DNA from: a phage
Length of the DNA stretch: 44,066 nt
NCBI GenBank assembly: GCA_029093145.1
Contig: GCA_029093145.1_4347.1
Direction: 5' to 3' (one strand)
Made by a program: the position numbers and the translations under genes
In this document: positions 1,517-6,778 of the stretch, in pieces
Layout: each line of letters starts with the position of its first letter
Position numbering within the stretch: the first letter of the stretch is position 1
The notes under the pieces: generated by a model
Seen by the model: only the letters and a program-made list of their open reading frames with translations
Database searches by the model: none
What the model was told of the DNA's origin: nothing

Positions 1517-1540
1517 AAGCCCTCTACGGAGGGCTTTTCT
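1517..1540 (+). terminator. rho-independent terminator-like hairpin
   Basis: AAGCCCTC-TACGG-AGGGCTT followed by TTTCT. Confidence 0.5.
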
Positions 1541-1634
1541 GTACATCCCGCCCAATCCCCTTATATAATCCCTTTAGACGCGCAGGGCGCGTCTGGTGCG
1601 CTCTGATGGTCAGACGCATATGCAAGGGGATTCT

Positions 1635-4913: not shown

Positions 4914-4940
4914 AAAGGCCCCGCTAGGGGCCTTAGTTTT
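4914..4940. terminator. bidirectional terminator hairpin
   Basis: AGGCCCC-GCTA-GGGGCCT then TAGTTTT; sits between convergent genes. Confidence 0.6.
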
Positions 4941-5592
4941 AACGTATATTAGCCGCACATTTACGCACAACCCGAGGTATCGCCTCTTTCAGTTCACCCC
5001 ATGTATTAACGGCCTCCATGTCAAGAAGCGTCACCAGAGCTTTCTGGATGTCACTTCGCAACTGATTGGTCTTCGCATCCTGAGAGTCCCATGTATCGAA
5101 ACCCGTTACGTCGCGGATATCTACGGATTCCTTTACCGCTTTAGCCACCTGTATGAAGTGTCCACTGTGGCCAATTCTTCCCTCCGTGCGCTCGATCATT
5201 CGACTAACGGCAGCGTTAAGCTCGACAAAGCTCACCGCGCCAATGTTTCGTAGTTCTACCTGCCGTTGTGTGATAAAGCGGTCGATAACGAGGAAATGGA
5301 AATAGGCGCTGTATTGCTCAGCAATATATACTGCCAGATGGAGACATGCAAAGGTGCGACCGTTTCGGCCTTTCGTCGCCCTTATGGCATTCTCGATTCC
5401 GAGTTGTTTTTCGCATTCCTCCTTGAAAATCTTGAAGCCATCCGTTGCCATGACCTGGCGAAGCTCTCTGGCCCCCATGCCGTTGTCTAAACGCCAACGG
5501 TTCATCTGGTCAACCAGCTCGTTTACGTTAATAAAGTTTTCACGGTCAAAAGTGATTTCTCCATAAGGGAACTCTAATGTTTGCAGTTTCAT
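4939..5592 (-). CDS. KilA-N/APSES-type DNA-binding protein (antirepressor-like)
   Basis: N-terminal region resembles KilA-N pattern (INVNELVD ... GRTFACLHLAVYIAEQ); antisense to flanking structural genes; SD AGGAGA. Confidence 0.4.
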   Translation of the reverse strand: MKLQTLEFPYGEITFDRENFINVNELVDQMNRWRLDNGMGARELRQVMATDGFKIFKEECEKQLGIENAIRATKGRNGRTFACLHLAVYIAEQYSAYFHFLVIDRFITQRQVELRNIGAVSFVELNAAVSRMIERTEGRIGHSGHFIQVAKAVKESVDIRDVTGFDTWDSQDAKTNQLRSDIQKALVTLLDMEAVNTWGELKEAIPRVVRKCAANIR

Positions 5593-5620: not shown

Positions 5621-5648
5621 TAAATTCTACATTTGAATGTAGAATTTA
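5621..5648. promoter_or_regulatory. operator-like palindrome in divergent promoter region
   Basis: TAAATTCTACAT-TTGA-ATGTAGAATTTA, 12-bp perfect arms, between start of minus gene (5592) and plus gene (5735). Confidence 0.4.
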
Positions 5649-5734
5649 ATCAAGCTCTTTTTAACCTTAAATGCGTATGATTATGCCAATACGTTACCGA
5701 CTGATATGATTGTCATATCGAAACAGGAGGGTAT

Positions 5735-6778
5735 ATGAGCTTACTGACATCACTAATCAGCCACCAGATTTGGCTGCAACGCACCGCATCTGGTGAAGTG
5801 AAAGACCTAGCACCGTTCATTCAGGAGATGCGGGACGAAATAAAACGGCAGGTGCTGTTATTCGGTGACGACGGGCGAAGCACTGCCCGACTGAATAAAT
5901 TGTTACGCGACCTTGAAGAAGCACTGGTGAGGCTTACGGGCGACTGGCAGACAAAGCTGACAGAAGACCTTAAGGAACTGGCGGCGTATGAGGCTGAGTG
6001 GAACGTAAAGACACTGACCGCCAACGTAGACGCGGAATTTGTTACGCCTACCGCTGAGCAGGTATGGGCCGCTGCCGAGTTTCAACCATTATCATTGAGC
6101 GACAAGCCCGTTGATTTCACCAAGCTGATGTCTGGATGGGGTGAAACGGAAGTAGCACGTCTTGTAACTGGAGTTAAGATGGGCTTTGTGCAAGGTCAAA
6201 CCACACGGCAGATTGTTAAGAATGTTGTTGGCGCTGGTGGACTAGCCGACATCTCAGAACGTAACGCGACTACGGTAATCCGCACCGCGCTGTCCCACGT
6301 ATCCAACGAGGCCCGTAACGAGACGTACCGCCAGAACGACGACATCATCGAGAAATATGAGTGGGTGTCAACTTTGGACAGCCGTACCAGCACGATTTGC
6401 AGGGCCAGAGACGGAATGACGTGGGAAATCGGTAAAGGTCCGATGCCACCAGCCCATCCTAATTGCCGGTCGTGCACGGCTCCGGTAATCAGTTCCGAGT
6501 TCGACTTCCTCGATAAAGGCGCAAAACGCGCGGCTAAAGGCGCGGAAGGTGGCACTCAGGTAAGCGCAGACACCACTTACTACGAGTTCCTTAAACAACA
6601 ACCGGCGTGGTTTCAGGACCAGGCGCTCGGCCCGGTGCGAGGTAAGATTTTCCGTAACAGCGGTATATCGCCGGAAGAGTTTCGCGTAATATCTGTAGAT
6701 GGTTTCGGGAATCCGCTCACGCTTAAGCAGATGGCGGAACTCGATAAACGTGTTGCTGATTATCTGAAAGGGGAATAA
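5735..6778 (+). CDS. head morphogenesis protein (Mu F / SPP1 gp7-like, putative)
   Basis: 347 aa ORF after portal with SD AGGAGGG; canonical position of minor head morphogenesis protein. Confidence 0.6.
   Translation: MSLLTSLISHQIWLQRTASGEVKDLAPFIQEMRDEIKRQVLLFGDDGRSTARLNKLLRDLEEALVRLTGDWQTKLTEDLKELAAYEAEWNVKTLTANVDAEFVTPTAEQVWAAAEFQPLSLSDKPVDFTKLMSGWGETEVARLVTGVKMGFVQGQTTRQIVKNVVGAGGLADISERNATTVIRTALSHVSNEARNETYRQNDDIIEKYEWVSTLDSRTSTICRARDGMTWEIGKGPMPPAHPNCRSCTAPVISSEFDFLDKGAKRAAKGAEGGTQVSADTTYYEFLKQQPAWFQDQALGPVRGKIFRNSGISPEEFRVISVDGFGNPLTLKQMAELDKRVADYLKGE

Follow-up and report, generated by a model that had tools for sequence, protein, structure and literature searches.

A conserved terminator, putative promoter and two-hairpin leader upstream of terS in Kagunavirus-like phages and their relatives

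Gene order and the start of terS

The DNA analyzed here, referred to throughout as the window, is a stretch of 44,066 nucleotides (NCBI GenBank assembly GCA_029093145.1, contig GCA_029093145.1_4347.1) from a Kagunavirus-like siphophage of the Guernseyvirinae, with 96% identity to phiEc3, phiEc4, and other phages across the terS-leader region. On the + strand, small genes lead into a hairpin at 1517-1540, the last of them being an unannotated 33-codon ORF (1412-1513) whose stop codon is separated from the hairpin by 3 nt. Beyond the hairpin lies the leader that is the subject of this study, followed by the gene for the terminase small subunit (terS), then terL and the portal gene. The start of terL overlaps the stop of terS (ATGA, 2177-2180), and the terS-terL-portal unit closes with a strong bidirectional terminator at 4915-4934.

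The 33-codon ORF (MQLLVFPNAWTIAVANDHYGGDGKRAPRHGLYN, + strand) has a good Shine-Dalgarno (SD) sequence and overlaps, in a different frame, the end of a 90-aa ORF at 1186-1458. It is kept in locus L053 of our comparison set and is also present, uncalled, in the unrelated Drexlerviridae phage tonn (MRLFIFKNAWMVAVANDHYGGDGKRARRHSYFN), which accounts for the 80-86% DNA matches to ~51-kb siphophages in DNA that carries the annotation "none."

An earlier note on this sequence placed a perfect inverted repeat right before terS. That description suits the longest ORF, which opens at a GTG (1596) within the second of the two hairpins described below, but the real start is the ATG at 1635, 40 nt further on, so that terS occupies 1635-2180 on the + strand and encodes 181 aa. 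Codon comparison with Jerseyvirus separates the two starts: the 13 codons from GTG 1596 contain 0 synonymous and 7 non-synonymous differences, compared with 17 synonymous and 6 non-synonymous differences in the first 45 codons after ATG 1635. In-frame stops also occur just upstream of the ATG in loci L053 and L093, and the corresponding stretch of L052 lies in a different frame. Together, the substitution pattern, the stops, and the frame of L052 rule out the 13-codon extension as coding sequence. TerS versions of 194-195 aa in several large protein clusters (P0001, P0003, P0004, and P0006), 13-14 residues longer than the 181-aa protein, are consistent with a start called at a GTG or ATG inside the second hairpin, and several GenBank and IMG/VR records are linearized exactly at this false start. 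For annotation purposes, the terS start should be placed at ATG 1635 and not at the upstream GTG/ATG.

Terminator, putative promoter and leader hairpins

Regions upstream of terS were gathered from 50 IMG/VR loci, 36 metagenome loci, three GenBank phages, and five uncultured lineages (TerS 57-63% identical), giving a comparison set of 88 loci with 63 distinct sequences and 32 distinct leaders. When metagenome and genome collections were scanned for more distant TerS proteins, most of the matches were close relatives, and the useful distant lineages came from protein searches and contig look-ups. All of the approximately ten lineages, among them Kagunavirus, Jerseyvirus, phiEap-2/St161, and the five uncultured lineages, share one order of elements: a terminator, TA(T/C)AAT, a hairpin (H1), one or two bases, a bulged hairpin (H2), an SD sequence, and the ATG. 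A separate observation concerns locus L090 (NZ_JACVEL010000022.1, from an assembly labeled Taishania pollutisoli), a 19-kb contig with a Jerseyvirus-type TerS (86% identity) that is probably a contaminating phage contig and not a prophage.

The first element, described in the earlier note as a terminator-like hairpin at 1517-1540, was exact on both sequence reading and a repeat finder. Its stem, AAGCCCTC (1517-1524) and GAGGGCTT (1529-1536), encloses the loop TACG (a UACG tetraloop in RNA) and is followed by the interrupted U-tract TTTTCT to 1540, with a predicted RNA fold of -14.8 kcal/mol (z -4.6). The structure is kept in all lineages with compensatory stem changes in at least four (stem versions include CCCTC/GAGGG, CCCGC/GCGGG, GGCCCC/GGGGCC, and GCACTC/GAGTGC), and the T-runs that follow it are longer in relatives. 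The hairpin is not among the matches listed by a simple terminator scan. It combines a GC-rich stem-loop and U-tract, a position at the end of a transcription unit, and structural conservation, the features of a Rho-independent terminator, here for the upstream operon on the + strand. Perfect 8-bp hairpins are in approximately fivefold excess across the window (21 matches at ~15 distinct sites, compared with 3.9 +/- 2.4 in Markov simulations) and are mostly intergenic terminators, which indicates that this class of hairpin is functional in the genome, although a lone hairpin proves little. Also observed in the window was a recurrent terminator family, AAGGCCCC-N4/5-GGGGCCTT, found at operon ends at 4915, 7243, 14270, and 27971 (also 20000 and 36849).

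The terminator is followed by a candidate sigma-70 promoter on the + strand, consisting of a -35-like hexamer, TGTACA (1540-1545, 4/6), an 18-nt spacer, and the -10 hexamer TATAAT (1564-1569). The earlier note had recognized the TATAAT box but placed it one base low, at 1563-1568. The combined elements match the sigma-70 consensus at 10/12 positions, and because matches of this quality are not rare (11 found vs 5.7 expected in 6 kb), the case for a promoter rests on conservation and not on the match. Positions T1, A2, A4, A5, and T6 of the -10 hexamer are invariant in 32/32 distinct leaders, the sequence of the spacer has diverged among relatives, and -35-like hexamers (TTGCCA, TTGCCT, TTGCAT, and TTTACC, with 3-5/6 matches) recur in them 17-19 nt from the -10. 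A -10 invariant at 5/6 positions, with a diverged spacer and a placed -35, is in sequence terms the pattern that genuine sigma-70 promoters usually show. Geometry predicts transcription to start at the A at 1576, 7 nt past the -10, and H1 begins ~6-10 nt after the -10 in all lineages but L091. In the literature, we found no mapped transcription start site for any phage of the Guernseyvirinae, and no timing for this promoter. The suggestion in the earlier note of a promoter or regulatory structure finds comparative support, as the terminator, the -10, and the hairpins hold their positions in approximately ten lineages, the spacer diverges, and the stems compensate.

The predicted start coincides with the first base of H1 (1576-1594, + strand), the perfect inverted repeat AGACGCGC (1576-1583)-AGG-GCGCGTCT (1587-1594), which sequence reading and the repeat finder reproduced exactly as first described. 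It folds as an 8-bp GC-rich stem capped by an AGG triloop at 1584-1586 (-12.4 kcal/mol, z -4.0). The perfect state is peculiar to the window: among the 88 loci (63 distinct sequences) no other has this exact leader version, and the remaining Kagunavirus-type leaders of the set all carry a T at 1583, which forms a U.G pair. One nucleotide downstream is H2 (1596-1619, + strand; GTGCG-C-TCTGA / TGG / TCAGA-CGCAT), which the earlier note had missed, a 5+5 bp stem with a bulged C at 1601, a UGG triloop at 1607-1609, and conserved GA..UC closing pairs (-11.4 kcal/mol, z -2.8). In both hairpins the stems covary beneath apical loops and closing pairs that hardly vary (AGG in H1; GA-UGG-UC in H2), the H1 stem occurring as AGACGC/GCGTCT, AGTCGC/GCGACT, GCGCC/GGCGC, and GCCCCC/GGGGGC and the H2 stem as CTCTGA/TCAGAC, CTATGA/TCATAC, TGCCGA/TCGGCA, GGAGA/TCTCC, and GCAGG/CCTGC; the H1 loop is altered in L051, L053, and L091. 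An Rfam scan of 1300-1900 at E <= 10 returned two hits at chance level (E 5-8, far below gathering scores), and a two-hairpin terS leader was not found described in the literature on Guernseyvirinae. By covariance model, the leader element is single-copy in the genome, and a search for extra copies of its motifs elsewhere in the genome found none, the motifs being neither repeated nor enriched.

Two further pairings or resemblances were considered and set aside. A switch in which GCGTCTG (1589-1595) pairs with CAGACGC (1611-1617) in competition with H1 is broken in Jerseyvirus, where compensation saves H2 instead. A hairpin at 5700-5718 (GATATGA-TTG-TCATATC), upstream of the SD of the head-morphogenesis gene at 5735, resembles the apex of H2, and these two are the only GA-U(G/U)G-UC hairpins in the genome; it is conserved in neither Jerseyvirus nor K1H, so the resemblance is a coincidence.

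A longer-range complementarity, also missed in the earlier note, links the promoter to the ribosome-binding site. The -10 hexamer and discriminator (1564-1575, TATAATCCCTTT) are complementary to the SD AAGGGGA (1624-1630) and the spacer that follows it (1624-1635, AAGGGGATTCTA), forming a putative + strand helix that we call P0, and a second, less conserved anti-SD copy (AATCCCCTT) lies at 1554-1562. The full leader (1550-1637) folds as a three-way junction at -37.1 kcal/mol (z -3.8), a value that none of 200 shuffles equaled. Since the 5' arm of P0 lies upstream of the predicted transcription start, it would be present only in RNA that reads through from the upstream operon. In independent folds of 12 sequences, RNA that included the -10 gave P0+H1+H2 in 9-10/12, and RNA starting at +1 gave H1+H2 with the SD free. 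The energy of the P0 duplex was better than that of shuffles at p <= 0.006 in 9/12 sequences, and with a 13-nt arm it was not significant in L051, L091, and L095; in L051 and L091 the stretch that best complements the SD falls partly or wholly within the promoter spacer, with weaker support (p 0.11 and 0.04). The arm changes along with the SD in phiEap-2 (CCUG/CAGG), L053 (CCCUG/CGGGG), and Jerseyvirus (UACAAUCC/GGAUUGUA). In the model-fitted alignment, P0 is 83.9% paired, with 5/12 pairs changed on both sides and 16% of cells unpaired; frequent Kagunavirus discriminator variants (CCATTT, CTATTT, and CACTTT) break P0 pairs uncompensated, and RNAalifold run on the leader alignment did not recover the helix.

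Covariation and competing explanations

The two hairpins are far more consistently kept. In a MAFFT alignment fitted to no structure, 90.6% of cells are paired and 14 pairs have changed on both sides, compared with 5.4 +/- 1.4 in shuffles and 2-6 in slid controls, and because the sequences are related such shuffle tests overstate significance, though distinct lineages each bear stem sequences of their own. The model-fitted alignment shows 97.4% pairing in H2, with compensatory changes in 8/10 pairs, and 94.9% in H1, and RNAalifold predicts both hairpins unaided. Read on the + strand, the non-Watson-Crick cells of H1 are 29 G.U vs 3 A.C and those of H2 are 16 G.U vs 5 A.C; counted as column states, those of H2 are near equal (A.C 5 vs G.U 4), which counts against the explanation favored below. 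The H1 of Jerseyvirus contains two wobble pairs, and of the four single stem substitutions seen within Kagunavirus, three still allow a wobble pair. Stems that drift with pairing kept and that tolerate + strand wobbles argue for selection on a + strand RNA and not on a double-stranded DNA site.

The leader and the protein encoded next to it have not changed in step. In phiEap-2 and St161, whose TerS is 29% identical, the leader retains ~80% nucleotide identity with H1 and H2 nearly unchanged, and phages with ~60%-identical TerS have quite different stems. As a separate observation on the edges of this segment, many Jerseyvirus genomes turn alignable exactly at the terminator (1516-1517; query position 117), and at 1635 the conserved leader of phiEap-2 and St161 gives way to a divergent terS. 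These mosaic boundaries suggest that the leader acts as a separate recombination module.

These patterns bear on two explanations in which the hairpins mark a DNA site. The earlier note had raised the possibility that the inverted repeat belongs to a packaging recognition site, and it is reasonable to ask whether the hairpins are all or part of a double-stranded pac signal bound by TerS to start headful packaging, comparable to pacL of SPP1. Guernseyvirinae package by the headful route, one Jerseyvirus has been classed as "P1-like pac" by PhageTerm, known phages have their pac sites in or beside terS, and the leader element is single-copy and adjoins terS. The literature on Guernseyvirinae yielded no mapped pac site, which leaves room for one here, and published PhageTerm runs on these phages returned either "random/permuted" or an unlocated "P1-like pac." Nevertheless, we consider a pac signal rather unlikely, and the suggestion found no support in the comparison: the variation fits RNA structure better, as the G.U wobbles tolerated on the + strand would leave the half-sites mismatched in DNA, and near-identical hairpins beside a TerS of 29% identity argue against a TerS-specific DNA signal, as do different stems beside much more similar proteins. 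The DNA does not covary with TerS as a pac site would, the motifs show neither repetition nor enrichment, and restriction patterns of K47 lack a submolar pac fragment. The start points of GenBank records were rejected as a proxy for pac, as these points coincide either with the false GTG/ATG start or with round distances of 10 or 50 nt before the ATG and are therefore conventions and not termini; the Kenya-K47 record is among them, though its paper reports a PhageTerm pac call. An operator for a dimeric regulator that switches the packaging promoter, formed by the inverted repeat at +1 to +19, is unlikely, and we would give it only a slim chance. The palindrome is perfect, overlaps the predicted start, and has a third half-site-like copy (CAGACGC, 1611-1617), but it is perfect only in the window, and in L051, L053, and L091 the hairpin is conserved and the half-sites are not. 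In addition, the Jerseyvirus change from CTCTGA/TCAGAC to CTATGA/TCATAC saves H2 pairing and destroys the third copy, and AGACGCG is not enriched in the sequence (13 vs 8.1 +/- 2.6).

Two other explanations accept a structured RNA but differ over what it does. If there were no promoter, 1554-1637 would be an intercistronic three-way junction within one long transcript, and TATAAT would be kept only for its pairing with the SD spacer. In favor of this reading, most lineages have the three-way junction as their minimum-energy fold, and TA(T/C)AAT covaries in part with ATT(A/G)TA (UA 7, CG 6). However, the -10 hexamer is better conserved than its proposed partner: it remains 5/6 invariant even where the partner is unpaired (pair 3/78 is unpaired in 13/27 sequences and pair 2/79 in 7/27), L051 and L091 retain an unpaired TACAAT, and -35-like hexamers are retained at 17-19 nt. 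An efficient-looking terminator just upstream would also leave terS with little mRNA if it lacked a promoter. This surplus conservation of the hexamer disfavors a transcript without a local promoter, which we regard as improbable. Alternatively, H1 and/or H2 may be RNA operators for a specific protein, through translational autoregulation by the terminase or by some other RNA-binding protein of the phage, or a site of RNase processing, instead of passive stabilizers. Near-invariant loops on covarying stems are typical of a recognized loop, and the leader is better conserved than the gene downstream of it, but no candidate for the binding protein was found, small G-rich triloops may instead serve stability or ribosome standby, and the H1 loop has changed in three loci. 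We therefore consider such operators possible but doubtful. Equally doubtful is the broader proposal that H1-H2 is a dedicated recognition module, acting either as an RNA operator that tunes translation of the packaging genes through terminase or another phage protein or, as DNA, as the Guernseyvirinae pac signal; within that proposal, the leader would be held more tightly than TerS because a trans-acting partner reads it.

Proposed working of the junction and its relation to known systems

We favor, with moderate confidence, the interpretation that 1517-1635 is a conserved junction of two transcription units, consisting of a terminator, a sigma-70-type promoter, and a two-hairpin terS leader. 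As a terminator-promoter junction it is ordinary, and the two-hairpin leader is a structured cis-regulatory mRNA leader. We propose that the intrinsic terminator at 1517-1540 would stop transcription of the upstream + strand operon, and that a host sigma-70-type promoter (1540-1545 and 1564-1569) would start the terS-terL-portal mRNA at ~1576. The resulting 59-nt 5' untranslated leader is predicted to fold into the two adjacent hairpins, with the SD remaining free. H1, at the extreme 5' end, would probably shield the mRNA from 5'-end-dependent decay (RppH/RNase E). RNA reading through from upstream would carry the anti-SD arm and could form the three-way junction that masks the terS ribosome-binding site, and promoter-initiated RNA, which would lack that arm, should be translatable. 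As terL is translationally coupled to terS through the ATGA overlap, its expression would follow that of terS.

Some observations count against parts of this explanation. The -35 hexamer is weak (4/6, with an 18-nt spacer), and promoter-like matches are common. The gating role suggested for P0 is the weakest part of the model, and its purpose is less clear if the upstream operon is not "early," as may be the case given that relatives carry an endolysin gene there.

Parts of the junction resemble several known regulatory elements. 5'-terminal stem-loops of the ompA type in Escherichia coli stabilize mRNAs against 5'-end-dependent decay, and in nearly every lineage the leader similarly places a stable hairpin a few nucleotides from the predicted 5' end. 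It differs in having a second hairpin, with a conserved loop, immediately downstream, for which the ompA paradigm has no need. The succession of a U-tract stem-loop and a -35/-10 pair within 30 nt does not differ substantively from the back-to-back terminators and promoters found at phage operon boundaries. In SPP1, pacL and pacR adjoin terS, with pacL in the terS promoter region, and in P22 and Sf6 the pac site lies inside terS. The element in the window likewise stands beside terS in a headful-packaging phage, but it shows the variation of an RNA structure and has no repeated TerS-type boxes. The put antiterminator RNAs of HK022 consist of two adjacent stem-loops, one nucleotide apart, just downstream of a promoter, an arrangement that H1 and H2 share with respect to the predicted promoter. 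Unlike put, the stems in the window are smaller and match no Rfam family of any kind, and processive antitermination is not called for in an operon of only three genes that ends in the strong terminator at 4915-4934.

The closest parallel to the proposed gating is found in T4, where the ribosome-binding sites of gene e, soc, 49, and I-TevI are sequestered by a helix whose 5' arm holds the gene's own promoter, such that long read-through transcripts are silent and promoter-initiated ones are translated (PMC3014915). In the window, the -10 and discriminator are complementary to the SD and start region, and, in line with gene e and I-TevI, the predicted +1 lies downstream of that arm. Unlike gene e, the window promoter is of the sigma-70 type and not a gp55 late promoter, P0 closes a three-way junction around two further conserved hairpins, and P0 is predicted from sequence and less conserved than H1 and H2. 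If P0 does act in this way, an anti-SD embedded in a promoter would extend the gene e principle to a sigma-70 promoter and an unrelated siphophage.

Given its covariation and the lack of an Rfam family, the two-hairpin leader could reasonably be proposed as a new family of cis-regulatory RNA. Phages of both Kagunavirus and Jerseyvirus are widely isolated for use in therapy and biocontrol, and they also serve as small chassis for engineering. The terminator-promoter-leader cassette amounts to ~120 bp that engineers must leave intact, and could also serve as a portable, insulated expression module.

Downstream of the packaging genes, a further observation concerns a minus-strand gene at 4939-5592 (annotated as "amidase" in relatives) between the portal and head-morphogenesis genes. 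K1H lacks it, with a terminator directly joining those two genes, and the gene has the look of an inserted, moron-like cassette. It diverges from the head-morphogenesis gene, and the intergenic DNA between the two contains a perfect AT-rich 12+12-bp palindrome, AAATTCTACATT-TG-AATGTAGAATTT (5622-5647), which may be an operator; Jerseyvirus carries a different palindrome, AAATGGTATAT..ATATACCATTT, at the equivalent place.
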